DNA of 64,000 nucleotides from Escherichia coli (GCF_001677475.2 NZ_CP015229.1); one strand, 5' to 3'. Counted from the first letter of the stretch, positions 1 through 56,114 are shown. The notes: a model not told the origin generated them from the sequence alone. Made by a program: numbers and translations.

Positions 1-234
1 CTGGCCTGGGCCTCCAGCGCCGGGATCATCAGCCTGCTGTTTATTTTTGTCGCCTACCAGCCTGGCGTGGAAAACCAGACCGCCAGTTCGCTTGGCGGGA
101 TCGCGGCGATGGAAACATTACTGCCTGCGCTATTCCACCTGCTGCTGGCAGGGGCGATCCGCTTTTGCAAACTCAATAATCCTATGATGTCACGCATAGC
201 TACCGACCTGCGTCAGCGTCATGTACAGCCTTAA
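1..234 (+). CDS. 3' fragment (C-terminal 77 aa) of a membrane transporter, possibly a sugar:cation symporter; 5' end lies outside the window
   Basis: Open frame from position 1 to TAA at 232-234; translation is hydrophobic (…IISLLFIFVAYQP…LLPALFHLLLAGAIRF…) like a terminal TM helix pair; sits immediately upstream of a glycoside hydrolase gene. Family assignment is a guess. Confidence 0.45.
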   Translation: MAWASSAGIISLLFIFVAYQPGVENQTASSLGGIAAMETLLPALFHLLLAGAIRFCKLNNPMMSRIATDLRQRHVQP

Positions 235-244
235 GGAGCACAAG

Positions 245-2215
245 ATGAACATTTCGGAAGTCGATCTGCATAAACTGACGGTCAGCGATCCGTTCCTCGG
301 TCAGTACCAACAACTGGTCCGCGACGTGGTGATTCCTTATCAGTGGGATGCCTTGAACGATCGTATCCCAGAAGCGGAACCCAGCCATGCGATTGAAAAC
401 TTTCGCATTGCCGCCGGACTTCAGGAGGGTGAATTTTACGGGATGGTGTTTCAGGACAGCGACGTCGCCAAATGGCTGGAAGCGGTAGCCTGGTCGCTGT
501 GCCAGAAGCCGGACGCCGAACTGGAAAAAACCGCCGACGAGGTAATCGAACTGATCGCCTCCGCCCAATGCGAAGACGGCTATCTCAATACTTACTTTAC
601 GGTAAAAGTACCCGAAGAACGCTGGAGCAATCTGGCGGAGTGTCATGAACTTTACTGCGCCGGTCATCTGATTGAAGCCGGAGTCGCCTTCTTCCAGGCC
701 ACGGGCAAGCGGCGCTTGCTGGAAGTGGTTTGCCGTCTGGCCGATCATATCGACAGCGTATTTGGTCCAGATGAAAGTAAGTTACACGGTTACCCTGGTC
801 ACCCGGAAATTGAACTGGCACTGATGCGTCTGTATGAAGTGACCGAAGAGCCGCGCTACCTGGCACTGACGAACTATTTTGTCGAACAGCGTGGTGCGCA
901 ACCGCACTATTACGACCAGGAATATGAAAAGCGCGGGCAGACCTCGCACTGGCACACCTACGGCCCGGCGTGGATGGTGAAAGATAAAGCCTACAGCCAG
1001 GCGCATTTGCCCATCGCACAGCAACAAACCGCCATCGGACATGCAGTACGCTTTGTCTATCTGATGACCGGCGTCGCGCATCTCGCGCGTTTAAGTCACG
1101 ATGACAGCAAGCGTCAGGACTGCCTGCGGCTGTGGAACAATATGGCCCAGCGTCAGTTATATATTACCGGCGGCATTGGCTCGCAAAGCAGCGGCGAAGC
1201 GTTCACTAGCGATTACGATCTGCCGAATGACACGGTATACGCTGAAAGTTGCGCCTCCATCGGCCTGATGATGTTTGCCCGACGAATGCTGGAAATGGAA
1301 GGCGACAGTCAATATGCCGATGTGATGGAGCGCGCACTGTACAACACCGTGCTCGGCGGCATGGCGCTGGATGGCAAACATTTCTTCTATGTGAATCCGC
1401 TGGAAGTACATCCAAAATCGCTGAAATTCAACCATATCTACGATCACGTTAAACCGATCCGCCAGCGTTGGTTTGGCTGCGCTTGTTGTCCGCCAAATAT
1501 CGCCCGCGTGCTGACCTCGATTGGTCATTATCTCTACACGCCGCGTGAAGATGCGTTGTATATCAACATATACGCAGGAAACAGCATGGAAGTGCCGGTA
1601 GAAAATGGCACGCTGCGCCTGCGGGTTAGCGGGAACTATCCGTGGCAGGAGCAGGTGACGATTGCGGTTGAATCGCCCCAGCCGGTACGTCATACGCTGG
1701 CTTTACGTCTGCCGGACTGGTGCACACAGCCGCAGATCATATTGAATGGGGAAGAGGTCGAGCAGGATATTCGTAAAGGGTATTTGCACATTACCCGCGA
1801 ATGGCAGGAGGGCGATACGCTGAATCTGACTTTGCCGATGCCGGTACGCCGCGTTTACGGTAACCCGCTGGTGCGTCACGTCGCCGGAAAAGTGGCGATT
1901 CAGCGCGGCCCGCTGGTGTATTGCCTGGAACAGGCCGACAACGGCGAGTCACTGCATAATCTGTGGCTGCCCACCGATGCGCCATTTACGACATTTGAAG
2001 GCAAGGGATTGTTTAGCCATAAGATCTTAATCCAGGCACCGGGTTACCGGTATGAACAGAGCAATCCAGAGCAGCAACCGCTGTGGCATTACGACAGCGC
2101 GCCAGCCAAACGCCAGACGCAAACTCTGACCTTTATCCCGTGGTTTAGCTGGGCCAACCGGGGTGAAGGCGAAATGCGGATCTGGGTGAATGAGGAAAAG
2201 CATTGCCATCCGTAG
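245..2215 (+). CDS. Glycoside hydrolase family 127 (DUF1680) protein, beta-L-arabinofuranosidase-like
   Basis: ORF in track 221..2215; I place the start at ATG 245 (MNISEVDL…), 8 nt after AGGAG at 233-237. Contains the Cys-rich motif WFGCACCPPNIAR typical of HypBA1-type GH127 enzymes. Not part of K-12 gene order at this position as I recall it. Confidence 0.8.
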   Translation: MNISEVDLHKLTVSDPFLGQYQQLVRDVVIPYQWDALNDRIPEAEPSHAIENFRIAAGLQEGEFYGMVFQDSDVAKWLEAVAWSLCQKPDAELEKTADEVIELIASAQCEDGYLNTYFTVKVPEERWSNLAECHELYCAGHLIEAGVAFFQATGKRRLLEVVCRLADHIDSVFGPDESKLHGYPGHPEIELALMRLYEVTEEPRYLALTNYFVEQRGAQPHYYDQEYEKRGQTSHWHTYGPAWMVKDKAYSQAHLPIAQQQTAIGHAVRFVYLMTGVAHLARLSHDDSKRQDCLRLWNNMAQRQLYITGGIGSQSSGEAFTSDYDLPNDTVYAESCASIGLMMFARRMLEMEGDSQYADVMERALYNTVLGGMALDGKHFFYVNPLEVHPKSLKFNHIYDHVKPIRQRWFGCACCPPNIARVLTSIGHYLYTPREDALYINIYAGNSMEVPVENGTLRLRVSGNYPWQEQVTIAVESPQPVRHTLALRLPDWCTQPQIILNGEEVEQDIRKGYLHITREWQEGDTLNLTLPMPVRRVYGNPLVRHVAGKVAIQRGPLVYCLEQADNGESLHNLWLPTDAPFTTFEGKGLFSHKILIQAPGYRYEQSNPEQQPLWHYDSAPAKRQTQTLTFIPWFSWANRGEGEMRIWVNEEKHCHP

Positions 2216-2344: not shown

Positions 2345-3085
2345 TTAAAAACGCCAGCTCACGCCGGTGACAAAGGTAAAACTCTCATTACGATCAATCA
2401 TCGGGCTGTCGGTAATCTCTTCCGGCAGCTCGCTGTATCCTGCGCTCGCCATCAATACGACGTGCTCTCCTATCGGGTATTTTGCCGTCAGGCTGACATA
2501 GGGCACCCAGGAATCCTGCGCGGAATAACTTGCCAGACCGCTACGACGGGACTCACTCTCTGAAATGCCATAGTAATAGTCACTGAAATTCTCGTCATAA
2601 TAGAGAACGCCCAGCGCAGGTGTCAGCGACAGACGACCTATCTGCATTTTGTGGAATACCGATAGCTCCCCCACCCAGCCGTTGCTGTTATCCAGAACGT
2701 CCGCAGCTGCAGAGGCTTTCACGGTTCCCCAACGCTCGTGGTGATACCAGGCAACCCCCGCCATAGCCGTACTATCACGCTTATCAAGCTGTTGCATGGC
2801 ATAATCGTCATTATCGGCAGGGTCAAATTCCAGCGGCATCCAGGATGCGGTCAGGCTAAGTTCATTTTTTTCACTTTGCGACAGAATAAAACCTAACGTG
2901 GTCTGACGAACATAAAAAGAATCACCTTCATAACTAATCAGGGGAATTGCCTTTGTATTTTCATTATAACCGCGATAAGGCGATTCATTATAAGCCGCAC
3001 CGGCACCAATGGATAATTCAGAAGCAGTTGCGCTTGCCATAAAAGGCAACGCAAATAACGCCACAATATTGCGGTTAATTAACAT
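2345..3085 (-). CDS. yiaT: MipA/OmpV-family outer-membrane protein YiaT
   Basis: 246-aa ORF; sequence recognised as YiaT (MLINRNIVALFALPFMASA… signal peptide, ends …GVSWRF aromatic C-terminus typical of OM beta-barrels). Confidence 0.85.
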   Translation of the reverse strand: MLINRNIVALFALPFMASATASELSIGAGAAYNESPYRGYNENTKAIPLISYEGDSFYVRQTTLGFILSQSEKNELSLTASWMPLEFDPADNDDYAMQQLDKRDSTAMAGVAWYHHERWGTVKASAAADVLDNSNGWVGELSVFHKMQIGRLSLTPALGVLYYDENFSDYYYGISESESRRSGLASYSAQDSWVPYVSLTAKYPIGEHVVLMASAGYSELPEEITDSPMIDRNESFTFVTGVSWRF

Positions 3086-3208
3086 GTCCGGTATTCCATT
3101 TTAAAATAAGATAAAAAAGAGTCGGCATAGTAATGCTTACAATTTCTCCGGTGCAAGATTCATATTTATATAGTAATATATAAAATTATATATAATTGGG
3201 CTGTTGCG

Positions 3209-4183
3209 ATGACAAAATTACAACTTAAGTACCGGGAGTTAAAAATTATCTCGGTAATCGCTGCCAGTGAAAATATCAGCCATGCCGCGACTGTACTTGG
3301 CATCGCACAGGCCAACGTCAGCAAATATCTTGCTGATTTTGAATCAAAAGTAGGTTTAAAAGTCTTTGACCGAACCACCCGGCAACTGATGCTCACACCT
3401 TTTGGTACCGCGCTGTTGCCATACATCAATGACATGCTGGACAGAAACGAGCAGCTTAATAATTTTATTGCAGATTATAAGCATGAGAAACGTGGTCGGG
3501 TCACTATCTATGCACCAACCGGCATAATTACCTATTTATCCAAACATGTAATCGATAAAATTAAAGATATCGGTGATATCACCTTATCGCTAAAAACCTG
3601 CAATCTTGAGCGTAATGCCTTTTATGAAGGCGTCGAATTTCCCGATGATTGTGATGTTTTAATCAGCTACGCTCCACCAAAAGATGAATCGCTGGTTGCC
3701 AGTTTTATTACGCAATATGTCGTAACCGCTTATGCCAGCCAGCGCTATCTTGAGAAACATCACATTAGCCGTCCTGACGAACTCGAACATCACTCCTGTA
3801 TTTTGATCGACTCAATGATGATCGACGACGCGAATATCTGGCGCTTCAACGTCTCCGGGAGTAAAGAGGTGCGGGATTATCGTGTGAAGGGAAATTACGT
3901 TTGCGACAACACGCAATCGGCGCTGGAGCTGGCACGAAATCACCTGGGGATTGTGTTTGCGCCAGACAAAAGTGTGCAGAGCGATCTGCAAGACGGCACG
4001 CTGGTGCCCTGCTTTCAGCACCCGTATGAATGGTGGCTGGATCTGGTGGCTATCTTCCGTAAACGGGAATACCAGCCCTGGCGGGTCCAGTATGTGCTGG
4101 ATGAAATGCTGCGTGAAATTCGCCACCAGCTTGCTCAGTCGCAGCAACTGCGGCCTGAACAAGCGGCGGAAAGCGAAGATTAA
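3209..4183 (+). CDS. yiaU: LysR-family transcriptional regulator YiaU
   Basis: 324-aa ORF with N-terminal HTH (…[38 protein letters not shown]…); divergent from yiaT, ATG at 3209. Confidence 0.85.
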
Positions 4184-5316
4184 TGATCGAGATAAAGGTA
4201 ATGCACCCAGCTGGTCATGCGTAATAACACTTTGCGCATCACCGAGACATGGCTGAAATGATCGGAGTAGACCGCCACCTGGGCGTAAATACCGTCTGGT
4301 AAAGCGCTCAAATCAGTATGCTCATCCAGTTCAATGGTCGCGATAACGCCATCTGAACCCGGCGCTGTGTTTAACGTCTGTAAGGTACCGGTCGACTGAT
4401 AAGCTCCACCGGGAACAGCTGGACTAATGGCTGCCAGCTTACCGCTGAATACCTTACCTGGCAGAGCATTAAACACCACTTCCGCATCGTCACCAGGAGC
4501 CAGTCGCAGCAAGGAGTTCTGACGGAACTGCGCCACGATTTGTCGTTTCTGATCGGGTATAAACACCATCACCGGACGTAGCGGCAGCGACGCGGCATAG
4601 GTACCCGGACGAATCAGGACCTGGGCCACGTAACCATCGCTCGGCGCACGCACTATCGTCTGCTCAAGGTTATATTTTGCTTCCGCGAGCTGCGCTTTCA
4701 GGCTGGCGATTAGAGAATGTTCACCCAACACCAGGCTATCCAGCTGGCTCTGGACCTGTTTTTGTTCCGCCGCCGATGACTTTACGGAGGCTTCCTGCGC
4801 CAGATAATTTTGCCGCGCCACATCAATATCGCGTTCTGAAAACGGGTTTACTTTCGCCTGGCTGCCGCGTGCGTAACGCTGATACTCTTTAGCGAATTTA
4901 TCCCGCGTGGCCTTTGCCTGCTGAGTATTCGCCGCCATCTCATCTAACTCTGCGCCCAACGCCCGCTGTTTATGTTCTGCGGTAACGATATCCGCCATCA
5001 GCCGATCCACCCGCGCCTGATAACGCGTCGGGTCCAGTCGAAAAAGCACCTCGCCTTTTTTAATCAGCGTATTTTTCTTATCCGTCACTTCAATCACCAC
5101 GCCTGTCACCTGTGGGACAACAGGGATGGAAATAACCGCTTTTTGCGCTTTAAAGGTATACGGATGGTTATAGTTCATTAACAGAATTAAACCGCTGACA
5201 ATAAATATTCCCCCCAGGGCCGCTGTGGGAATGGTCCATTTATTTACAGGAATTTTGAAGATCTTAAACATTGCCCATGCGAAAGCCACATAGGTCAAGA
5301 TAATCAGTAAATCCAT
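4180..5316 (-). CDS. yiaV: HlyD-family periplasmic adaptor (membrane-fusion) protein YiaV
   Basis: 378-aa ORF; N-terminal TM helix, coiled-coil middle, barrel-sandwich/biotinyl-like C-terminal region; ATG at 5316 lies 5 nt after the yiaW stop. Confidence 0.85.
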
Positions 5317-5321
5317 AAGTA

Positions 5322-5645
5322 TTACTCGGCAGAAGAGGATTTGATGTCGGCGAGCTGTTTCTCCAGCCCGGCAATACGCTGTTGTAGTTGCACAACGGAG
5401 GAGTCATGGTTTTGCATTCCCCATCCCCGCTCCGGGCGGTAAAGCGTGGCCCAAATCCACAAAAATGGCCAGATAACATGCAGCGTAAAAAGACTCACCC
5501 AACCAGCGACATGAATGGCGTCGGCATGAGGATGATTACGTTTTTTAGCAATCAGGTAGGGAATATCATGTAAAATAATAATCCCATAGAATATCACCAG
5601 AAATACAAAAATAAGCACTCCCAGTGCAAAATAATCCAGGAACAT
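5322..5645 (-). CDS. yiaW: Small inner-membrane protein YiaW (DUF3302-like)
   Basis: Track ORF 5322..5675; I choose ATG at 5645 ([13 protein letters not shown]…, 107 aa) with GAGGG upstream; two predicted TM helices plus a C-terminal coiled-coil tail. Confidence 0.8.
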
Positions 5646-6066
5646 ATTTCCCTCAGAGAATATAAAAAAGAACAATTAACGCATATTATGAAATGCCATG
5701 ATGCAGTGCAATTTCCTTATTTATATAACGACATATTGTTTTTTATATACTTTCTGAAGTGTGCTGCCTGGCTTTTCAGCAGGTCGAGGCTTATCATATT
5801 GAAATAATGGAACTATTGACAAAACTAATGAATAACTCCAGTAAAACATCCACAGTACAGATAAAGCGTATTAAACCTTCAATTATCTACCGTTTATTGC
5901 TGATTGGCCTCGGAACACCAATGGTGATTTACGGCCTGGTTCGCCCGCTCACCATCGAAACGCGAGATTAAACTCCTGGCAAAACACGCCCCAGAAACGC
6001 ACTTCTGTTGGCGTAGTCTGGGTTATTGCGCACGTAGGTTTAAAACGTAAATTGTAACAAAGTGCG

Positions 6067-6189: not shown

Positions 6190-7728
6190 TCAGAACAGCC
6201 CCAACGGTTTATCCGAGTAGCTCACCAGCAGACACTTGGTTTGCTGATAATGCTCCAGCATCATCTTATGGGTTTCGCGTCCGATGCCCGACTGTTTGTA
6301 GCCGCCAAACGCCGCATGTGCCGGGTAAGCGTGATAACAGTTGGTCCACACGCGCCCGGCCTGAATGCCGCGCCCCATCTTATAGGCCAGATTACCGTTG
6401 CGGCTCCAGACGCCCGCGCCCAGGCCATATTGCGTGTCATTCGCCAGCTCCAGCGCCTCTTCCATCGTTTTGAAGGTGGTCACCGCCAGCACCGGGCCAA
6501 ATATCTCTTCCTGGAACACACGCATATTGTTCTGACCAAACAGAATCGTCGGTTCGAGGTAGTAGCCGTCTTTCAGTTCGCCTTCCAGCAGCTTGCGCCG
6601 CCCGCCGGTAAGCACATCTGCGCCCTCTTTTTTGCCGATATCAATGTAATTGAGGATGGTTTCCAGTTGCCCGTGAGATACCTGCGCGCCCATTTGCGTC
6701 ACGCTGTCGAGCGGGTTACCGCTACGAATGCTTTCAACACGACGGATGGCGCGTTCCATAAAGCGTTCGTAGATAGACTCCTGCACTAAAGCACGGCTTG
6801 GACAGGTGCAAACTTCGCCCTGGTTGAAGGCGAACAATGCAAAGCCCTCCAGCGCCTTATCGAAGAAAGCATCTTCTTCATCCATCACATCGGCAAAGAA
6901 GATATTTGGCGACTTACCGCCCAACTCCAGCGTCACCGGAATAATATTTTGCGTGGCGTACTGCATAATCTGCTGACCGACTTCCGTTGAGCCGGTAAAC
7001 GCCACTTTGGCGATACGTTTTGAGGTCGCCAGATATTCACCTATTTCGCCGCCCGCACCGTTGACCACGTTCACCACGCCTGGCGGCAGTAAATCACCGA
7101 CGATCTCCATCAAAAGCAACACTGAAAGCGGGGTAAGTCGTGCGGGTTTTAGCACCACGCAGTTGCCCGCCGCCAGCGCGGGAGCCATTTTCCAGCTCGC
7201 CATCAGCAACGGGAAGTTCCACGGGATAATCTGCCCCACCACGCCTAACGGTTCGTGGAAGTGATAAGCCACAGTTTCGCTATCGACTTCACTGATCCCA
7301 CCTTCCTGCGCCCGAATACACGAGGCGAAATAGCGGAAATGGTCAATCGCCAGCGGCACATCGGCAGCACTGGTTTCGCGGATGGGCTTGCCGTTATCCC
7401 AGGTTTCTGCCGTCGCTAACAGTTCGAGGTTCTGCTCCATCCGATCGGCAATCTTAAACAGAATCGCCGCGCGATCCTGCACCGAGGTATGCGCCCATTT
7501 GTCTTTCACTTTATGCGCGGCATCCAGCGCCAGATCGATGTCGCGTTTGCCCGAAGACGCCACTTCGCACAGTAGCTGCCCGGTCACCGGCGTCAGGTTC
7601 TGGTAATACTCGCCGTCGGCGGGTGCTACCCATTCGCCGCCGATAAAGTTGTCATAGCGAGCTTTTAACTTGAGGGGGAAACCATACTCGCCGGGCTTAA
7701 TCTGTGCTGAAGGGGGATTGTTGGTCAT
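6190..7728 (-). CDS. aldB: Aldehyde dehydrogenase B
   Basis: Track ORF is 558 aa; conserved protein begins at [17 protein letters not shown]… (ATG 7728, AAGGAGACGATC upstream), giving 512 aa; classic ALDH motifs present. Confidence 0.95.
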
Positions 7729-7892
7729 GATCGTCTCCTTGCGGTGTGAGGTATAACAAGGGTAGACGTGACTGGCGAAATCTTCGCCAGCCGGTGACAG
7801 CTTTACGACGGCAATCACGAATTTACGGGCAAGGATTACAGAGATAATTGAAAAATCGGCTGACAATTTGCCAGCCGTTGTGGGAATGATGA

Positions 7893-9044
7893 TTACATCG
7901 CAGCGCGATAAATCGCCACAATTTCTTCGTGAGTTGCCTGAATCGGGTTAGTAAATCCGCAGGCATCTTTCAGAGCATTGGTCGCCAGTACCGCGAAATC
8001 TTCTTCTTTCACGTTCAGATCGCGCAGACCTGCCGGAATATCGACTTTCTTCGCCAGTTCACGGATAGCGTTAATGCAGGCTTCTGCACCTTCCGCGTCG
8101 TTTTTACCTGTCACGTTCACGCCCATTGCAGCAGCGCAGTCACGCAGACGTGCGGCAGCTACTTTGCTGTTGAATACCTGAACGTGCGGCAGCAGAACGG
8201 CGTTACATACACCGTGCGGCAGGTTGTAGAAACCGCCTAACTGGTGCGCCATCGCATGAACATAACCCAAAGACGCATTGTTGAACGCCATACCGGCGAG
8301 GAACTGGGCATAAGCCATCGCTTCACGCGCTTTCGCATTGCTGCCATCTTCTACGGCTAACGGCAGGTTTTCGGCAATCATGGTCACGGCTTTCAGTGCG
8401 CAAGCGTCAGTGATCGGCGTTGCGGCAATAGACACATACGCTTCGATAGCGTGTGTTAAGGCATCCATACCCGTTGCAGCGGTCAGTGACTTCGGCATAC
8501 CGATCATCAGAGAGGAGTCATTGACAGAAAGCAGCGGAGTCACGTGTTTATCCACAATCGCCATTTTGATGTGGCGCGCTTCGTCAGTGATAATGCAGAA
8601 ACGGGTCATTTCAGACGCAGTACCCGCCGTGGTGTTGATGGCGATCATCGGCAACTGCGGTTTTGCAGAGCGGTCAACGCCTTCGTAATCGCGAATATCA
8701 CCGCCGTTGGCTGCCACCAGCGCAATGCCTTTCGCACAATCGTGCGGAGAACCACCACCTAAGGAAATCACGCTATCGCAATTATTTTCTTTCAGCAGTT
8801 TGAGGCCTGCGGCGACGTTTTCCGTAGTTGGGTTAGGCTGGGTGCCATCATAAATAACGCTAAAAATATTGCGTTCTTCCAGTGCTTTTTGCACATCGCC
8901 CGCCATACCTAATTTCGTTAAAATATTGTCAGTAACAATTAATGTACGGGTAAAGCCATAGTCTGCCATCATATTCATTGCATCATTCAATGAATCAGCG
9001 CCGATGACATTCACTGAAGGAATAAAAAAGGTTGAAGCTGCCAT
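7893..9044 (-). CDS. yiaY: Iron-containing (group III) alcohol dehydrogenase YiaY
   Basis: 383-aa ORF with Fe-ADH signatures ([11 protein letters not shown]…, …HAMAHQLGG…). Confidence 0.9.
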
Positions 9045-9142
9045 AAAACACTCCTGGAAGAGTAAAAAGGGCTGGCAGATTACAAAGTATTTTCATTCGG
9101 AAATATGATCAACATTACCGTTTATCAAAATATTTTTAATAA

Positions 9143-9175
9143 AAAGCACGTTACATTCATCAAATAACGTGCTTC
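9143..9175 (-). terminator. Candidate stem-loop downstream of selB (possible selAB terminator)
   Basis: Inverted repeat aaagcacgtta / taacgtgctt with an 11-nt loop in an AT-rich spacer; no clean U-tract, so weak. Confidence 0.3.
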
Positions 9176-9232
9176 TTTAATATTAATAAGAATTTTGTAT
9201 TAATTCATATTTATTATGAATTAATCATTTCC

Positions 9233-11077
9233 TTATTTTTCGGGAAATAATAATGCATCGCGCAATAAATGATCATTTCCACGACGCCGCGTAAAGCCAA
9301 TGCGGTCAAAATATTCCAGAATCTGAATTGCCAGCTTTCGGCCTACACCTAAGCGATCGCGGAAATCCGCCGCGCAGGTTGAGCCACATTCCTGATCGAG
9401 ATCGCGGATCATATTGGCAAATTCAACAATCCGATCATTACGGTAATAACGATCTTTGACGATCGCCGTAATTATCCCCTGCTGTGCCGCCTGGCGTAGC
9501 GTCAAGCGCATTGCCTGCTCGTCGGTTCCCGTCTCTTTTGCCAGGTCACGCACCCACCACGGCTCGTCACCAAACAGCGGCTCTGCTTTTTGCCAGATGG
9601 CCTGCTGCTCTTCGCTGAAGCCCGCTTTGTGATCCGGCAGATGCAGCCAGCCGTGATGACTGAGGATGTCGCCGCTTTCGCGCATCTTTTCAATCAGCAA
9701 CAGTACCAGCGCTTCATCTTCCATTGGCAACGCCATACGTCGCAGACGTTCGCGCCCAGGACCAGGTTCATCGCGATGTTGCTCATGATAAGTCGCTAAT
9801 GTGTCGAGAATTTTCCGCTGCCAGCGGGCGGCAACCGGCGCATTCAACAAGCTATAACCAGCCTGAATATAGCCAGGCTGTTGCAATAGTTCGCGCATCC
9901 CTTCGCCGTTGAGCTGCCGTGCCCAGGCGAAATCGGCAAGGTTAACCGCGCCGCGTTCCAGATGAACAGATAACGCATCGGCATCGCTCTGCGCCCGTGC
10001 CAGTGACGCCAGCCATTGCAGATATTCCGGCTTACGTTTACCGCGACGCGGCGGGTTAAGCATCACCACACGCGCCCCCGCCAGCGTGTTGCGGGCCGAG
10101 ATATCGCGCAGCACTAAGCGATCGTTATCCGCCAGCCACAGCGGCGTGTCGAACACCAGCTCGGCAAGGTTATCTTCCAGCAGCGAAACGCGCCCCGTAA
10201 CATGGCTGGCGGCGTGGTGAATATGCAGCGGCTGCCACTGGGTCAGCGGTGTATGAGTTTGAAGCTCGACAATCACCCGTGTGAACGGCTCTGGCGGCAC
10301 ATCGGCAAGCAGCCAGTCGCCACGGTTAATCTGCTCTTTTTCCGCATCACCCGCGATGTTAAGTGCGATACGCTGCCCGGCATGGGCGGTTTCTGTTGGC
10401 TGGTTTTGCGCATGCAGCGCACGTACACGCATCGATTTATTTACACCAGTCAGCCATAGTGAATCGCCTACCTTCACTTCCCCGCTTAACGCCGTACCGG
10501 TGACGACCAGCCCGGCACCTTTTACAGTAAATGCGCGGTCGATCGCGAGGCGGAAACTATGTTGGCTGGCGTGTTCACGTTCTGGTAACTGAAGCAGATG
10601 CTCGCGCAGGGCATCAATTCCCCGACCTTCGGTTGCTGCGGTGATAAACAGTTTTGCCTCAGCAAAACCGTATTCCCGCAGCACCTCCTTTACCTGGCGT
10701 TCAACCTCATCAACACGCGCTTCGTCCACGCGATCGGCTTTGGTCAGCGCCACTGTCAGCATCGGGTTACCAGTCAGCTGCAAAATCGCCAGATGCTCAC
10801 GGGTCTGTGCCATCACGCCGTCATCGCACGCCACCACCAACAGCGCGTGATCGATACCACCAACGCCCGCCAGCATGTTGGAAAGAAACTTTTCATGACC
10901 GGGAACGTCGATAAAACCAGGCACGCGGCCATCCGGCTGCGGCCAGTAGGCATAACCGAGATCGATGGTCATGCCGCGCTTTTTTTCTTCCGGCAGACGG
11001 TCGGCATTTACGCCAGTAATCGCCTGCAATAAGGTTGTTTTGCCGTGGTCAACGTGTCCGGCAGTCGCAATAATCAT
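9233..11077 (-). CDS. selB: Selenocysteine-specific elongation factor SelB
   Basis: 614-aa ORF; N-terminal GTPase motifs ([24 protein letters not shown]); start overlaps selA stop. Confidence 0.95.
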
Positions 11078-12465
11078 TTCAACAACATCTCCAAAAACCG
11101 TTGCTCATCTTCAAGGCAGCGTAAATCCAGCCACAATCGTCCGTCATAAATACGACCAATCACCGGCACTGGCAATTCACGCCAGCGGGCGGCTAATGAC
11201 TCAAGGTGGCTACCGCGTCCATCATGGGGTGTAAACGTTAATGCCGCGCTCGGCAGGCGATCAACCGGCAGCGAACCACTGCCAATCTGCGAAAGACATG
11301 GCATAACCTGGACTGCAAACTCCGCGCCGTAATGTGCGGCAAGGGGAGCCTGTAAACGTTGTGCCTGGATTTGAATGACCTCTGCGCTGCGGGTAAGCAG
11401 GCGCAGGGTCGGTAATTTTTCACTCAGCGCCTCAGGGTGTAAATAAAGACGCAGCGTGGCTTCCAGCGCCGCGAGGGTCATTTTATCCGCGCGTAATGCA
11501 CGCTTCAGTGGATGGCTTTGCAGGCGGGCGATCATCTCTTTTTTACCAACGATAATCCCTGCCTGCGGCCCGCCTAACAACTTGTCGCCGGAGAAGCTCA
11601 CCAGGCTGACGCCCGCCGCAATCAACTCCTGCGGCATCGGCTCTTTCGGCAAACCGTACTGGCTAAGATCGACCAGCGAACCACTGCCTAAATCAGTCAC
11701 TACGGGAACATCCAGTTCTTTGCCAAGCGCCACCAGTTCAGCTTCATCTATCGCTTTGGTGAACCCCTGAATGCTGTAGTTACTGGTATGTACTTTCATC
11801 AACAGTGCGGTATTTTCATTCACCGCCTGACGATAATCATTCGCGTGCGTGCGGTTGGTGGTCCCCACTTCGTGCAGGGTACAGCCAGCCTGACGCATGA
11901 CGTCAGGGATACGAAACGCGCCGCCGATCTCCACCAGTTCGCCACGAGACACCACCACCTCTTTACCGCTGGCAGTGGCCGCCAACATCAATAACACCGC
12001 CGCCGCATTGTTATTAACGATACAGGCATCTTCCGCCCCCGTAATACGGCACAGCAGCTGCGCCAGCGCACGATCGCGATGTCCGCGTCCGGCGTCGTCC
12101 AGATCGTACTCCAGCGTCACCGGCGAACGCATAGCCTGCGCAACGGCTTCCACCGCGGCTTCTGCCTGTAAAGCTCGCCCAAGATTGGTATGCAGCACGG
12201 TTCCCGTCAGGTTGATCACCGGACGCAGCGCGCTCTGCGCTTCTTTCGTCAACCGGGCATCGACTTCTTGCGCCCAGTTCTCACACCACGCGGGCAGCGT
12301 CTGGCTGTCACGAATCACTTCTCGCGCTTCGTCAAGCATCTGACGCAGCAATTCCACCACGCGGGTGTGACCATAAGTATCACGCAAAGAAAGGAAGGAG
12401 CTATCGCGCAATAAGCGATCAATAGCCGGAAGTTGACTATAGAGGGAACGCGTTTCGGTTGTCAT
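11074..12465 (-). CDS. selA: L-seryl-tRNA(Sec) selenium transferase SelA
   Basis: 463-aa ORF recognised as SelA ([19 protein letters not shown]…), PLP-dependent fold. Confidence 0.95.
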
Positions 12466-12562
12466 AGGAAACCTGGCTAATCAAGGCTCTCTCACACGGA
12501 GAAGGGCGTTTAACATAACCACGGATTGTAACGTGAGATGGGTCAGGAGGACATATCGCGCA

Positions 12563-13171
12563 TCAAGCCTTTGGCGGTTCGGTGCGAGCAAAACTTTCGC
12601 GGCTAAACAGGTTTTCGACCAGTTTGACTAAGTGTGGGCGGTCGACACACCAGCCTGGCGCAACGCGGCGGAAATTGAGATATCCGACGGCACAGGCAAT
12701 GGCGATAGTCGCCAGATTGACCGTATCGGTTTTGAGTGTGCCATCGACCAGATATCCTTCCAGCACATCCAGACTGCGGTTGATTTTCTCCCGCTGGCGT
12801 AACAATTCATCTTCAGACTGCTGCGCCGCCGGACGCGCCTGTTCGCGCACCGACACCAGCCCGGCATCCATAATACCGTCGGCCAGCGCCTCAATTTTAC
12901 GCACTCGCAACGACTCCAGCGGATCGCGCGGCAACATCGCCGGAGCGACATTCATTAATTCAATATATTCGGCAATGATCGGCGAATCAAACCAACATTC
13001 GCCCTCTTCGGTCACCAGCACCGGCACTTTCCCTAACGGGTTAAATTGCGCCACGCCGTTGTCCGCGTTATAGGGCAGCTCATTAATAAATTCGAAAGTT
13101 ATGCCCTTTTCTAACAACAGAATAGAAAGTTTGCGTACAAACGGGCTGGTGTAGCTACCGACGAGTTTCAT
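12563..13171 (-). CDS. yibF: Glutathione S-transferase-like protein YibF
   Basis: 202-aa ORF with GST N-terminal thioredoxin-like fold ([24 protein letters not shown]…). Confidence 0.85.
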
Positions 13172-13241
13172 GCCGAGTCCTTTGTGCGAGGAAAAATATC
13201 AGTATGGCTCAGGCTCGCGCAAAACACAGGTGACATAAGTC

Positions 13242-14378
13242 TCAATGATCCAAATAAAGATAATGCATCCAACTGGTCATTCTCAGCAGCACCTTCCGCA
13301 TCACCGAAACATGGCTGAAATGGTCGGAGTAAACTGCTACCTGGGCGTAAATGCCGTCGGGTAAGGCATCGATATCATCGTTGGGGTCCAGTTCAATGGT
13401 TCCCAGCACACCGTCCGTGCCGGGCACGACCGTTAATGATTGCAATACCCCCTGCGCCTGATAAGAACCGCCTGGCACGACAGGTAAAATACTGGTCAGT
13501 TTGCCGTGGAACACCTGCCCAGGTAGCGCGTTAAACACCACTTCCGCATCATCGCCGGGTTTCAGACGTAACAGCGAGTTCTGCCGAAATTGGGCGACAA
13601 TTTGCCGTTTTTGCTCGGGGATGAAAACCATCACCGGACGTAGCGGCAAGGCAGCTGCGTATGTACCTGGGCGGATCAGTACCTGAGTAACGTAGCCATT
13701 GCTTGGTGCGCGAATGACAGTCTGCTCAAGGTTATATTTTGCTTCAGTAAGTTGCGCTCTTAAGCTCACAATCTGCGACTGCTCGCCGTTAACCATACTG
13801 TCGAGCTGGCTCTGGATCTGCGCCTGCTCCGCCACCGAGCCTTTCACCAGCGCGTCCTGCGCGAGGAAGTTTTGCCGCGCATCGTCGATGTCACGTTCCG
13901 AGAACGGATTCACCGCCGCCTGGCTACCTTTCAGGTAACGTTGATAATTTTTAAACAGACGGTCGCGCTCCGCTGAAACCTGGGTGGTGTTGGCCTGCGC
14001 TTCAGTGAGCTGGGCGCGCAGCGTCTTTATATTATGCGTCGCCGTCATCAGGTCAGCCTGAAGTCTGTCAACTCGCGCCTGGTAACGAACCGGGTCGAGT
14101 TTAAAAAGCACCTCGCCCTTTTGAATAAGCTGATTATTCTTGTCAGTGACTTCAGTAACAATTCCCGTCACCTGTGGCGTGATGGGGATCGCTATCACTG
14201 CCTTTTGCGCGGTAAAAGTGTAAGGATGGTTGTAGTTCATCAATAAAATCAAACCACTCACCAGAAATACGCCTCCCAACGCCGCCGTCGCCAGCGTCCA
14301 CTGATTCACCGGAATGCGGAAGATTTTAAATACTGCCCATGCCAGCGCCACGTAAGTTAAAACAATTAACAGATCCAT
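13242..14378 (-). CDS. yibH: HlyD-family periplasmic adaptor protein YibH (paralog of YiaV)
   Basis: 378 aa; co-linear with YiaV over its full length with identical C-terminus (…[33 protein letters not shown]). Confidence 0.85.
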
Positions 14379-14380
14379 AA

Positions 14381-14743
14381 TCAGATCTCCGGGAACGTGG
14401 AATAGTCACTCTTTTTTTCAGCTGCAAGTTGGTGCTCCAGCCGGGAAATACGGTCAGAAAGTGCGGCGATTTCCGGGTCAGTCACTTTCTCCTGCGACGC
14501 AACATGTGACTGCATGCCCCAGCCGCGCTCCGGTTGATAGAGCGTCGCCCAGATCCACAGAAACGGCCAGATAACATGCAGAGTAAACAGGCTAACCCAG
14601 CCCGCCGTATGAATAGCGTCGGCATGGGGATGGTTGCGCTTTTTGGCAATCAAATAAGGGATGTCATGTATCGCGATGATTCCATAAAAAATCACCAGAA
14701 AGACGAAGATCAGCACTCCCAACGCGAAGTAGTTTAGAAACAT
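14381..14743 (-). CDS. yibI: Small inner-membrane protein YibI (paralog of YiaW, DUF3302-like)
   Basis: 120 aa, [23 protein letters not shown]…; ATG at 14743 preceded by GAGG; stop 3 nt before the yibH start. Confidence 0.8.
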
Positions 14744-14959
14744 ATCTGCCTCGGATTCACGCTTATCAGTGTTGTTTTTTGGCTGGCAGCCGGAAGGGAG
14801 TCAGGCTGATACTTTGACATTAATCTGCGTTTGCCAATCTCGCCATCACACCGAAGGATAATTTTAAAAGGCGATGAGTTGCTCAGTTACAAAACTGTCT
14901 TAAGGCAAAGTCAGAACATGTTGCAGATCACATCAGGTGAATTACCGAAGAAAATATCT

Positions 14960-21240: not shown

Positions 21241-24200
21241 ATGAACAAAATTTTTAAAGTTATCTGGAACCCTGCGACGGGAAGTTACAGCGTCGCCAGC
21301 GAAACGGCAAAAAGCCGTGGAAAGAAGAGCGGTCGCAGCAAGCTGTTAATTTCTGCGTTGGTTGCCGGTGGGTTGCTGTCGTCGTTCGGGGCGAGTGCTT
21401 CTGTCAGTCTTGATGGTGGTACATATTCTGATGGCACCGAACTTACTGATGCATGGATTGCTATTGGTAAAGGTGCGAAAGCTTCCTCTGTAGGCGGTAG
21501 CACAGCAAGTATTTCTATTGGGGTAAATGCAATCTCTGCTGCTGGGGCTACTGCAGTGGGTTATAACAGTAATGCTACTGGACAAAGTTCAGTATCAATG
21601 GGGCAGCTATCGAAAGCCACAGGGAGCAGGGGGGTTGCTATCGGCAGTGGAGCTAGTGCCATTGGCGACTATACAGTTGCATTAGCGGTTGGCTCCAGTG
21701 CTAGCGGTGAGAGTGCAGTGGCAATAGGTCAAGGTTCCGGAGCCAAAAATAAAGGTAGTGTTGCGTTAGGTAACAGAGCGTCATCATTAGGAGAAAAATC
21801 GGTAGCACTAGGGGTAGACAGTAAGGCCACTGGTGACGATAGCCTGGCATTAGGTAGAAACGCCTTGGGCAATAGCACAGGTTCCATTGCAATGGGTGCC
21901 GCAAGCGAAGCCAATGGATTATATAGTTTGGCATTAGGCGCAAGCAGCGTAGCTAACGCGGACAATACCGTTGCGCTCGGATATGGTGCCAATGCAGCCA
22001 AAGCTGGAGCAATGGCTTTCGGTCAGGCAGGAAAGGCAGATGGTGTAAATTCTATTGCGCTGGGTAATAAAAGTCAGTCAAGCGGCGAAAACAGTATTGT
22101 GCTTGGACAAGAAAGCTATGCTGGTAGTGAAAAAAGTATTGCGATTGGTAGCCTGTCCAACGTAACCGGTGTTAACTCCGTTGCTCTGGGCACAGAGTCT
22201 ACTGCCGTGGAAGATAATACTGTTTCAGTAGGTAACGACACGCTGCAGCGTAAAATTGTCCATATGGGAAAAGGCGATATTAGCAGTACCAGTACTGATG
22301 CCATCAATGGTTCACAGCTTTATGATATCAGTAAGTCAGTTGCAGACCGTCTGGGCGGCGGTGCCTCCGTGAGTACTGCCGGGGTTGTTAACGCCCCTAA
22401 CTACAAACTGCAAAGTGGTAACTTTAATAATGTTGGCGACGCATTAAAGGGTCTTGATGATAATACGTTGCAATGGGACTCGCTTAAAAAAGTCTACAGT
22501 GCAAAACACGGTTCCGATGCCACCAGCAAAATCACCAACGTTACGGCGGGTGAGCTGAACGCATCCAGTACCGACGCCGTTAACGGTTCTCAGTTGAAAA
22601 CCACTAACGACAATGTGGCAACCAACACCACTAATATCAGCAACCTGACCGGCGAAGTTGCTAACAACACCACCAATATCACTAACCTGACGAATGATGT
22701 TGCCGCCAACACCACCAGTATCACCAACCTGGCTGATACGGTGACTAACCTTGGTGAAGATGCGCTGAAATGGGATGACACCGCTGGCGTATTCACTGCT
22801 GCACACGGCACCGAAGCCACCAACAAAATCACCAATGTTACGGCAGGTGAGCTGACGGAGACCAGTACCGATGCGGTTAACGGTTCTCAGTTGAAAACCA
22901 CTAACGATAACGTGGCAACCAACACCACCAGTATCACCAACCTGACTGATACAGTGACTAACCTTGGTGCCGACGCGCTGGCATGGGATGACGCCTCAGG
23001 TGCATTCACCGCCAAACACGGCACCGAAGCCACCAACAAAATCACTAACGTTACGGCAGGTGAACTGACGGAGACCAGTACCGATGCCGTTAACGGTTCT
23101 CAGTTGAAAACCACTAACGATAACGTGGCAACCAACACCACCAATATCAGCAACCTGACCGGCGAAGTTGCTAACAACACCACCAACATCACTAACCTGA
23201 CGAATGATGTTGCCGCCAACACCACCAGTATCACCAACCTGGCTGATACGGTGACTAACCTTGGTGCCGACGCGCTGGCATGGGATGACGCCTCAGGTGC
23301 ATTCACCGCCAAACACGGCACCGAAGCCACCAACAAAATCACTAACGTTACGGCGGGTGAGCTGACGGAGACCAGTACTGATGCCGTTAACGGTTCTCAG
23401 TTAAAAACCACTAACGACAATGTGGCAACCAACACCACCAACATCACCAATCTGGCTGATACGGTGAACAACCTCGGTGAAGATGCGCTGAAATGGGATG
23501 ACGCCGCAAGCGCATTCACCGCTGCACACGGCACCGAAGCCACCAGCAAAATCACTAACGTCACCGCTGGAACAATCTCGTCTACCAGTACCGACGCTGT
23601 TAACGGTGGGCAACTCTTTAGCTTAAGTGATTCACTGGCAGACTATTTTGGCGGTAACGCCTCGGTTGATGAAAACGGTGTATTTACTGGCCCGTCCTAC
23701 ACCATCGGTAGCAACAGCTACGATAACGTAGGTGATGCGCTGGCGGCGATTAACACCTCCTTTAGCACTTCACTGGGCGACGCTCTGCTGTGGGATGAAA
23801 CGGCAAGTGCATTCAGCGCCGGCCACGGTGGCAATGCCAGCAAAATTACCAATGTCGCAAACGGTACTATTTCTGAAACCAGCACCGATGCCATCAATGG
23901 TGGGCAACTCTACGGTGTGAGCAACTCTGTTGTTGATGCCCTGGGCGGTGGCGCCGCAGTAAATGCTGACGGTAGCATCAGTGCGCCGACGTACTCCATT
24001 GCTGATACCGATTACAATAACGTCGGTGATGCTCTGGACGCGATCGACTCAACCCTGGATGATGCGCTGCTCTGGGACGCAACCGCCGGTGAAAATGGTG
24101 CGTTCAGCGCCAGCCGCGATGGCAAAGCCAGCGTAATCACTAATGTTGCTAATGGTGATATTTCTGAAACCAGTACTGATGCAATTAATGGTTCACAGTT

Positions 24201-25905
24201 GTTCGCCACCAACACGTTGATCAATCAGCAAAATGAGATCATCAACCAGATTGCCGGTAATACCAGCACAGACTACATCGAAGAGAACGGTGCGGGTCTG
24301 AACTATGCGCGTACTAATGACACCGGCTTAACCTTTATTGATGCGAGCGCATCAGGTACTGGCGCTACAGCGGTGGGTTATAACGCTGTCGCTTCCGGCG
24401 AAAGCAGTGTCGCAATTGGTCAGAATAGCAGCAGCAGCGTTGATACTGGTATCGCGCTGGGTAGCGAATCCGTCTCCAGCCGTGTGATTGTTAAAGGTTC
24501 TCGTAACACCAGCGTAACCGAAGAAGGCGTTGTGATTGGTTACGACACCACTGACGGCGAACTGCTTGGTGCATTGTCGATTGGCGATGATGGTAAGTAC
24601 CGTCAGATCATCAACGTTGCTGATGGTACTGAATCCCATGACGCCGTGACTGTACGCCAGTTGCAAAACGCCATTGGTGCGGTCGCCACTACGCCGACCA
24701 AGTACTACCATGCCAACTCAACGGAAGAAGATTCACTGGCGGTAGGTACTGACTCGCTGGCGATGGGCGCGAAAACTATCGTCAATGGTAATGCGGGTAT
24801 TGGTATCGGCCTGAATACTCTGGTTCTGGCAGATGCCATCAACGGTATTGCTATCGGTTCTAACGCACGCGCCAACCATGCAAACAGTATTGCAATGGGT
24901 AATGGTTCTCAGACCACTCGCGGCGCTCAGACTGGCTACACCGCCTACAACATGGACGCGCCGCAGAACTCTGTCGGTGAGTTCTCTGTCGGCAGTGAAG
25001 ACGGTCAACGTCAGATCACTAATGTCGCGGCGGGTTCGGCAGATACCGATGCCGTTAACGTTGGTCAGTTGAAAGTGACGGACGCACAGGTTTCCCAGAA
25101 CACCCAGAGCATTACTAACCTGAATACTCAGGTAACGAATCTGGATACCCGCGTCACCAATATCGAAAACGGTATTGGCGATATCGTAAGCACCGGTAGC
25201 ACCAAGTACTTCAAGACCAACACCGATGGCGTAGATGCTAACGCGCAGGGTAAAGACAGTGTTGCGATTGGCTCTGGCTCTATTGCTGCCGCTGATAACA
25301 GCGTTGCGCTGGGTACTGGCTCTGTGGCAAACGAAGAAAATACGATCTCCGTAGGTTCTTCCACTAACCAACGCCGTATCACCAACGTTGCCGCTGGTAA
25401 AAATGCTACTGACGCGGTTAACGTTGCGCAGTTGAAGTCTTCCGAAGCAGGCGGCGTGCGCTATGACACCAAAGCTGACGGTTCTGTTGATTACAGCAAC
25501 ATCACTCTCGGCGGTGGTAATGGCGGAACGACTCGCATCAGCAACGTTTCCGCTGGCGTTAACAACAACGACGCGGTGAACTACGCGCAGTTGAAGCAAA
25601 GCGTGCAGGAAACGAAGCAATACACCGATCAGCGCATGGTTGAGATGGATAACAAACTGTCCAAAACCGAAAGCAAGTTGAGCGGTGGTATCGCTTCTGC
25701 AATGGCGATGACCGGTCTGCCGCAGGCTTACACGCCAGGTGCCAGCATGGCCTCCATTGGTGGCGGTACATACAACGGTGAATCGGCTGTTGCTTTAGGT
25801 GTGTCGATGGTGAGCGCCAACGGTCGTTGGGTCTACAAATTACAAGGTAGTACCAATAGCCAGGGTGAATACTCCGCCGCACTTGGTGCCGGTATTCAGT
25901 GGTAA
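21241..25905 (+). CDS. upaG: Trimeric autotransporter adhesin (YadA-like), UpaG/EhaG family
   Basis: 1554-aa ORF; extended signal peptide [21 protein letters not shown]…; YadA-like head repeats (…SVALG.NS.A.G…); long Thr/Asn-rich repetitive stalk; C-terminal membrane-anchor domain ending …AALGAGIQW. Confidence 0.9.
22561..23580 (+). repeat. Intragenic tandem duplication in the adhesin stalk (2 x ~510 bp)
   Basis: 22561-23070 and 23071-23580 align co-linearly; the first ~300 bp of each copy differ at only a few positions, the remainder is ~85% similar. Further divergent stalk repeats with 210-300 bp spacing extend to ~24240. Confidence 0.7.
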
Positions 25906-55757: not shown

Positions 55758-55769
55758 CACGCTACCGCC
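55758..55769 (-). promoter_or_regulatory. ops element (RfaH recruitment site) in the waaQ operon leader
   Basis: Exact 12-mer GGCGGTAGCGTG on the transcribed (minus) orientation, reverse complement of cacgctaccgcc at 55758-55769, ~85 nt upstream of the waaQ start. Confidence 0.75.
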
Positions 55770-56114
55770 CCAGGCTCAACAGCTACCCGAATACTGATAA
55801 CGCACTTACTTTGACGCGCTAGTGTATCATTTCTTTCGCAGCAATCCGACCCGAATGATTTTTATACACAAAATATGATTTAACCATAAAAATCATATAG
55901 ATAAAATTTTGCATACAGAGAATCCAGATATTGTCTATGTAAAGTTGCAATCCTGGCTGAAATTCAATGAATCGCATAAAAATACAAAAAAATGAAGATT
56001 TAGCAGCAGATCAGCTCAAACAGAGACTATTTAAGTCAAAAACGGGAAAAGTAATGGTAAAGCCACAGCTAAATACATAGAATCCCCAGCACATCCATAA
56101 GTCAGCTATTTACT

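Follow-up and report, generated by a model that had tools for sequence, protein, structure and literature searches.

Two anciently diverged paralogous operons in Escherichia coli, each encoding a DUF3302 membrane protein and an EmrA-like adaptor

The yibI-yibH and yiaW-yiaV gene pairs of Escherichia coli are paralogous two-gene operons. The explanation that best accounts for our data, and to which we assign a probability of about 60%, is that the two operons diverged anciently, that each encodes a near-obligate pair consisting of a DUF3302 protein with two transmembrane (TM) helices and an EmrA-like adaptor, and that these pairs would contribute to an envelope-spanning conduit. Both pairs are already annotated in E. 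coli, with the RefSeq product names "HlyD family secretion protein" and "DUF3302 domain-containing protein". As a duplication, the arrangement is ordinary: each of the four E. coli genes already has a name and an annotation, and the product names of the two pairs match. What is gained is a sharper picture of an uncharacterised, widespread two-gene unit without a linked pump. In the literature searched, we found no functional study of yibH, yiaV, yibI, yiaW or DUF3302, and the mentions are incidental (strain tables, expression lists, a phage-resistance deletion and a TCDB label). The last of these lists YiaV as TCDB 8.A.1.1.4, "uncharacterized" (PMC10971958). DUF3302 itself is named, in passing, in just two of the papers.

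Results

Two modules flank the aldB-yibF block

A six-frame HMM scan of the window, i.e. the whole 64 kb stretch of E. coli DNA that was analysed, identified exactly two modules. In the regions compared, this DNA shows 96-98% identity to complete E. coli genomes. Nine genes are encoded on the minus strand in the order yibI, yibH, yibF, selA, selB, yiaY, aldB, yiaW and yiaV. The ORF coordinates agree with a preliminary description of this DNA in which the two modules share one orientation, are separated by about 9 kb and bracket yibF-selA-selB-yiaY-aldB: the start-to-start distance is 9062 nt (9.06 kb) for yibH and yiaV, and 9098 nt for the DNA repeat over the 5' parts of the small genes. The features are as follows; the genes between the modules are taken from the ORF list and from RefSeq, as annotated for homologous E. 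coli DNA.

14743-13242, minus strand, yibI-yibH module, two-gene operon
14381-14743, minus strand, yibI, 120 aa, DUF3302 small inner-membrane protein (Pfam, hydropathy, AF2)
13242-14378, minus strand, yibH, 378 aa, EmrA-like periplasmic adaptor (membrane fusion protein)
6190-13171, minus strand, block between the modules from aldB to yibF (synteny in 40+ Enterobacteriaceae loci)
12563-13171, minus strand, yibF, between the modules
11074-12465, minus strand, selA, between the modules
9233-11077, minus strand, selB, between the modules
7893-9044, minus strand, yiaY, between the modules
6190-7728, minus strand, aldB, between the modules
5793-5822, minus strand, promoter-like site TTGTCA-18-TATGAT about 150 nt upstream of yiaW, a consensus match only
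5645-4180, minus strand, yiaW-yiaV module, two-gene operon
5322-5645, minus strand, yiaW, 107 aa from the ATG, yibI paralogue
4180-5316, minus strand, yiaV, 378 aa, yibH paralogue
3209-4183, plus strand, yiaU, LysR-type regulator (ORF list, RefSeq name), convergent with yiaV with a 4-nt overlap

The yibI stop codon lies 2 nt ahead of the yibH ATG. For yiaW, the family alignment backs the ATG at 5645 (MFLDYF...); the ORF that was called mechanically begins at a TTG at 5675, 30 nt upstream of this ATG, which makes it 10 codons too long compared to the family, and it was discarded. Promoter-like sites are no more numerous in the region than in shuffled sequences. The yibF-yibH gap is 70 nt (13172-13241) in the window and likewise in strain GN06156 (L001). 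A search with yibIH as the query returned two "places" in most complete E. coli genomes, for which an rhsA element inserted between yibF and yibH, as in E. coli K-12, would account. The LysR-type gene yiaU is a neighbour of yiaV and its membership of the module is doubtful; it was dropped as a module part because it stays beside aldB in genera without yiaWV. Elsewhere in the window, and unrelated to the modules, a JUMPstart RNA element (Rfam RF01707, 53 bits; 55758-55796, minus strand) lies ahead of a run of minus-strand ORFs that, judging from its position, is probably the LPS core (waa) operon.

The similarity of the copies reflects selection on an old split

YibH and YiaV align along their full length of 378 aa without gaps and with 289 of 378 residues identical (76%; 614 bits, E = 0), while YibI and YiaW share 85 of 113 residues (75%; E 4e-62). 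The similarity is full-length and is not of the low-complexity kind, in agreement with the equal lengths of YibH and YiaV and the paralogy of both pairs given in the preliminary description. In YibI/YiaW, 74 of the 80 N-terminal residues are identical, and the tail is diverged with an 8-residue indel. At the C-terminus of YibH/YiaV, residues 339-370 are identical, followed by M371V and seven further identical residues (39 of 40 overall). Thus, an identical C-terminal stretch of 30 residues, as described earlier, is found in the form of a run of 32 residues, but this run is not terminal and one substitution falls within the last 40 residues. At the DNA level, yibH and yiaV are 69% identical, and the two most similar stretches between the modules are the following repeats.

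14511-14755, 5' part of yibI with the ribosome-binding region, 245 nt, 78% identical to 5413-5657 in yiaW, encoding the conserved TM core
13244-13367, 3' end of yibH, 124 nt, 83% identical to 4182-4305 at the 3' end of yiaV, encoding the near-identical C-terminal 40 residues

That the most similar DNA coincides exactly with the near-identical ends (5' in the small gene, 3' in the large gene) is what would be expected if these ends had been kept alike by recent gene conversion. The synonymous sites refute this explanation. For yibH/yiaV, four-fold degenerate sites are only ~35% identical along the whole gene, and the Nei-Gojobori method gives a saturated pS of 0.78 and a dN of 0.18. Within the ends themselves, about half of the codons for identical residues differ synonymously, with pS 0.68 and pN 0.03 in codons 339-378 of yibH/yiaV and pS 0.87 and pN 0.044 in the first 78 codons of yibI/yiaW. 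Moreover, the same end motifs are conserved in distant genomes with a single copy, and family members as remote as those from Alcanivorax, Rhizobium and metagenomes carry the C- and N-terminal motifs too. The near-identical C-terminus is thus a family-wide constraint, and we regard recent gene conversion as exceedingly improbable. Because the synonymous sites are saturated, the protein similarity reflects purifying selection on an old split, and the DNA repeats above do no more than show where the proteins are under the tightest constraint. Neither low synonymous divergence nor long identical tracts, the signs of a recent segmental duplication, were found between the modules, for which the two repeats are the best tracts. 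In comparisons of Escherichia with Citrobacter or Pseudocitrobacter, dN/dS is 0.02-0.05 for both modules. Both copies are therefore under strong purifying selection where present.

The membrane parts are the most conserved parts of the pair

YibI and YiaW match PF11742 (DUF3302) with 140 and 147 bits, well above the gathering score of 32. YibI has two TM helices predicted from hydropathy (7-25 and 46-68), a His/Asp-rich loop and, in the AF2 secondary structure, a short amphipathic tail helix. The DUF3302 loop and the TM2, which is rich in Trp and Pro, were each delimited as a sequence of 20 residues. The DUF3302 core is ~90% identical within Enterobacterales and ~80% identical to that of Alcanivorax and Rhizobium, i.e. 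between gamma- and alphaproteobacteria, and the family comprises 814 clusters at 50% identity. In the DUF3302 variants without H56 (P0187 and P0253), H26, D27 and H45 are replaced as well, which suggests that these four polar residues act together. A PDB search with YibI returned only coiled-coil noise, and in an alignment of DUF3302 with AaeX (DUF1656) of E. coli K-12 we found no relation (hhalign probability 0.1%).

YibH scores above the cut-offs of the Pfam models CusB_dom_1 (56.7 bits, cut-off 26.5), HlyD_D23 (42, cut-off 30) and HlyD_3 (33, cut-off 22), and YiaV scores similarly. With the RND_mfp model TIGR01730 (cut-off 94.9), YibH passes with 99.9 bits and YiaV falls below with 85.4. 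Models for individual subfamilies all score YibH far below their cut-offs (EmrA/EmrK TIGR00998, 113.5 versus 390.8; MdtN NF007785, 110.9 versus 376; AaeA NF007850, 75.1 versus 400). The best PDB match by sequence is EmrA (8zar, 1.7e-11), and Foldseek ranks the EmrA chains of EmrAB-TolC first among PDB structures (E 6e-20, TMt ~0.7). An AF2 model of a YibI-linker-YibH fusion, calculated with 32 paired sequences (pLDDT 79), has in YibH an N-terminal TM hairpin (1-19 and 26-50), a lipoyl domain, a beta-barrel and a C-terminal helix (355-374). The alpha-hairpin consists of helices 97-152 and 161-218 (~56 residues) with pLDDT ~90, and the model aligns with EmrA in EmrAB-TolC. The inner-membrane anchor corresponds to the hydrophobic segments 2-20 and 29-47 in the hydropathy profile, both of which are helical in the model; the positive-inside rule was used to predict the topology. 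With a lipoyl domain and beta-barrel, an alpha-hairpin and an inner-membrane anchor, YibH has the complete set of parts of an adaptor of the HlyD superfamily.

The C-terminal helix of the adaptor is conserved, basic and amphipathic. Across the family, the mean majority-residue fraction is 0.86-0.89 in the loop and TM2 of DUF3302, 0.71 in the TM hairpin of the adaptor, 0.69 in its C-terminal helix and 0.41 in its alpha-hairpin. The most conserved parts of the pair are, thus, those in the membrane. The alpha-hairpin of the adaptor occurs in two versions, a short class (~317-334 aa in total) and a long class (~375-385 aa in total). The metagenome clusters also include four odd forms (P0106, P0119, P0001 and P0214), namely two adaptors with ~87% identity to YibH as well as to YiaV, which are either chimeras or artefacts of assembly, a 446-aa form with an internal tandem duplication, and a 105-aa protein in which the N-terminus of DUF3302 is joined to the C-terminal motif of the adaptor and which looks like a deletion product.

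DUF3302 and the adaptor form a near-obligate pair without a recurrent pump gene

Distant loci were sampled from metagenomes using a DNA pattern coding for HPHQDAIH. The adaptor gene lies directly downstream of the DUF3302 gene in all genome loci with room for it and in 91 of the 93 metagenome loci, where the spacing is mostly -7 to +11 nt. DUF3302 and the adaptor are, therefore, a near-obligate pair, and the two genes are probably translationally coupled.

No gene for an energised inner-membrane transporter adjoins either module in the window. Likewise, no transporter family recurs beside the module in the metagenome loci, and no family of any kind occurs more than five times among 45 downstream and 53 upstream genes. 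ABC ATPase genes were found among 4 of the 45 downstream neighbours and were not counted; near-identical ORF sizes and positions indicate that they probably represent one lineage sampled repeatedly. The most frequent same-strand, directly downstream neighbours are genes for outer-membrane efflux channels. In the window, no such gene adjoins the modules; in six to seven loci of other organisms (L002, L096, L108, L183/L204, L194 and L118), it follows the adaptor gene directly with no pump gene in between, and most of these loci encode an adaptor of the short class (~317-320 aa). In addition, a gene for a SulP-family protein (Sulfate_transp and STAS domains) is present within a few kb in seven loci of different sub-lineages (L098, L122, L172, L002, L115, L180 and L118); in the first three it is directly downstream of the adaptor gene on the same strand. 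SulP may be a facultative partner of the module or have a functional link to it.

yibIH is the conserved copy and yiaWV an accessory copy

Among 5426 complete E. coli genomes, yibIH is present in 5425. By contrast, yiaWV is complete or near-complete in 3766 and absent from ~30%. In the one strain examined for the replacement, GN06156 (L001, 6273-6885), a hicAB toxin-antitoxin pair takes the place of yiaT-yiaU-yiaV-yiaW between a GH127 gene and aldB. The yiaT-yiaU-yiaV-yiaW stretch (2345-5675 in the window) is a variable segment in E. coli. Two further genes of the window look strain-variable: a gene for a 664-aa glycoside hydrolase of family 127 upstream of yiaT (221-2215, plus strand), and a 1554-aa ORF (21241-25905, plus strand) located where L001 has an annotated gene for a YadA-like adhesin.

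A synteny survey of 74 genome loci, almost all from Enterobacterales, supports the same division between the copies. In Enterobacteriaceae, the order is mtlD-mtlA followed by the divergently oriented yibI-yibH-yibF-selA-selB-(yiaY)-aldB. Within these loci, yiaW-yiaV, placed between aldB and yiaU/yiaT, is confined to Escherichia, Citrobacter and Pseudocitrobacter. Enterobacter, Lelliottia and Leclercia lack yiaWV at this site, and aldB is the direct neighbour of yiaU/yiaT there. Thus, yibIH is the conserved copy beside mtlA across Enterobacteriaceae, and yiaWV is an accessory copy. Both modules are functional where present, with yiaWV being dispensable in nature. The proposal in the preliminary description that retention of both copies points to non-redundant roles is, therefore, supported in part. 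Retention holds for the near-universal yibIH and does not extend to yiaWV across the species. The strong purifying selection on both copies where they are present is compatible with, but does not prove, non-redundant roles.

Two observations concern the positions of modules in other genomes. In Atlantibacter subterranea (L058; P0315, P0340 and P0350), the module in the mtlA slot belongs to a divergent lineage that is 74-75% identical to every other group, so that position is no guarantee of orthology. In some Citrobacter, Pluralibacter and Serratia grimesii genomes (L057, L059, L068 and L064), extra DUF3302-adaptor modules are present elsewhere, each with a LysR-type gene nearby; some genomes thus carry three copies.

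The second copy probably diverged before the radiation of the YibH type

In a 42-taxon neighbour-joining tree of the adaptors, the YiaV orthologues form a clade with 100% bootstrap support. A second clade, supported by 93%, leaves YiaV out and unites the YibH proteins linked to mtlA with those encoded by the single copies of Yersinia, Serratia, Pantoea, Budvicia and Buttiauxella and with a third group of paralogues; deep nodes other than this one are weak. In Citrobacter and Pseudocitrobacter, orthologues of either copy are found at the corresponding site. From this distance tree, which we do not consider final, the YibH/YiaV split appears to predate the radiation of the YibH type in Enterobacterales, and it looks older than the conserved mtlA-yibIH-yibF-selAB-aldB neighbourhood. 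With so early a split, either losses must have been numerous or a copy that had already diverged must have been inserted at the aldB-yiaU junction.

The obvious alternative is that yiaWV arose by in-place duplication of the mtlA-linked module in the ancestor of Escherichia and Citrobacter, and that YiaV evolved fast, its deep position in the tree being a long-branch artefact. The distance of only 9 kb between the copies, their shared orientation and the restriction of yiaWV to Escherichia, Citrobacter and Pseudocitrobacter all fit this scenario, and an earlier, smaller tree with a single very distant outgroup placed YiaV beside the core YibH proteins with 31% support. That tree was unresolved and was replaced by the 42-taxon tree, in which closer outgroups give the 93% for the clade without YiaV and 0% for a sister relationship of YiaV and the mtlA-linked YibH. 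Moreover, there is no visible rate acceleration: the identity of YiaV to the nearer outgroup is 59.0%, compared to 60.2% and 59.0% for the other groups. Also, it is YiaW, with its length of 107 aa and its tail, that retains the type of the Yersinia/Serratia single copies, and YibI has an expanded linker instead. Finally, the saturated synonymous sites speak against this scenario. We therefore consider in-place duplication unlikely. The ancient duplication put forward in the preliminary description stands with regard to paralogy and age, and an in-place origin is made doubtful by the position of YiaV outside all Enterobacterales proteins of the YibH type.

Discussion

On the basis of these data, we suggest a tentative model for the function of the DUF3302-adaptor pair. 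In this model, the adaptor would oligomerise into a tube resembling that of EmrA, which would dock to TolC or to a different outer-membrane channel. The inner-membrane base of the conduit, replacing a co-encoded pump, would consist of DUF3302 and of the adaptor's TM hairpin and C-terminal helix. The conserved, membrane-embedded residues H26, D27, H45 and H56 would be candidates for proton or ion coupling, and the two copies in E. coli would differ in substrate, partner or regulation, and not in the basic mechanism. The part of the model in which the adaptor tube docks to the channel on such a base seems to us to have a little less than an even chance of being correct. In a stronger version, which is rather unlikely, DUF3302 and the adaptor would be a self-contained, pump-less module connected directly with TolC-type channels; the His and Asp residues would serve in ion coupling or gating, and E. 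coli would have two diverged versions of the module. We know of no precedent for a two-TM protein and a TM hairpin functioning as an energised transporter and, to our knowledge, all characterised adaptors work with a separate pump.

The pair could instead be accessory to an inner-membrane transporter encoded elsewhere (MFS, FUSC/AaeB-like, ABC or SulP), with DUF3302 acting in a manner similar to AaeX or AcrZ. We rank this possibility only slightly behind the docked conduit. The order of a gene for a small membrane protein followed by an adaptor gene mirrors aaeX-aaeA(-aaeB) of E. coli K-12, YibH and AaeA share 25% identity across 254 columns, and the family models that score YibH highest are those of pump-dependent adaptors of the EmrA/MdtN/AaeA type. 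The SulP genes, within a few kb of the module or directly downstream of it, are in line with the same idea. However, no transporter family is consistently adjacent among the ~100 sampled neighbours, and several operons consist of DUF3302, adaptor and outer-membrane channel genes without a pump gene. Also, conservation in the pair's membrane parts goes far beyond what a mere anchor would lead one to expect, and the comparison with AaeX gives no support to DUF3302 being its counterpart.

Another explanation would be that the pair is not involved in transport and is an envelope-spanning tether or sensor, e.g. a membrane-stress factor or an entry factor for phages or colicins. In K. pneumoniae, deletion of yibH reduced plaque formation by evolved phages (PMC11796411), and in E. 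coli yibH serves as a neutral integration site (PMC5852967). Both reports could be read in favour of this explanation. Against it stand the fold, which is that of a complete EmrA-like adaptor, and the predominance of outer-membrane efflux channel genes among the same-strand downstream neighbours. Furthermore, there was no meaningful match to defence-system models; the PADLOC models gave only two coiled-coil-type matches (E ~0.005, 13-14 bits). We consider this explanation improbable.

Should the pair prove able to do without a classical pump, the accepted inventory of components for Gram-negative efflux and secretion machines would have to be extended, and four E. coli genes of so far unassigned function would gain a role. 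The pump-less module, if correct, would join RND, ABC and MFS pumps as a fourth means of building a conduit across the envelope. The natural dispensability of yiaWV should guide the design of knockouts.

Among known systems, EmrA of the E. coli EmrAB-TolC complex (PDB 8ZAL/8ZAR) is the closest to YibH in both sequence and fold. An inner-membrane anchor, a lipoyl domain, a long alpha-hairpin and a beta-barrel are common to the two proteins, both of which lack a membrane-proximal domain. However, the anchor of EmrA is a single TM helix, whereas that of YibH and YiaV is an N-terminal TM hairpin of two helices. YibH and YiaV also have an additional, highly conserved C-terminal helix, and their genes adjoin a DUF3302 gene and no emrB-like pump gene. 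The aaeX-aaeA-aaeB operon likewise has a gene for a small membrane protein directly upstream of the adaptor gene, an arrangement also found in ydhI-ydhJ-ydhK of E. coli. In contrast to aaeXAB, the modules described here do not include a gene for an AaeB/FUSC-type transporter, and DUF3302 is unrelated to AaeX in the profile comparison. MdtN of MdtNOP has the second-best NCBIfam score for YibH (111 bits), far below the equivalog cut-off, and no mdtO or mdtP equivalents lie beside the E. coli modules. Finally, AcrZ, which acts with AcrB, illustrates how a small inner-membrane protein can work with efflux machinery, and DUF3302 is analogous to it in this respect. Unlike AcrZ, DUF3302 has two TM helices, is far more highly conserved (~80% between proteobacterial classes) and is encoded together with the adaptor rather than with a pump.
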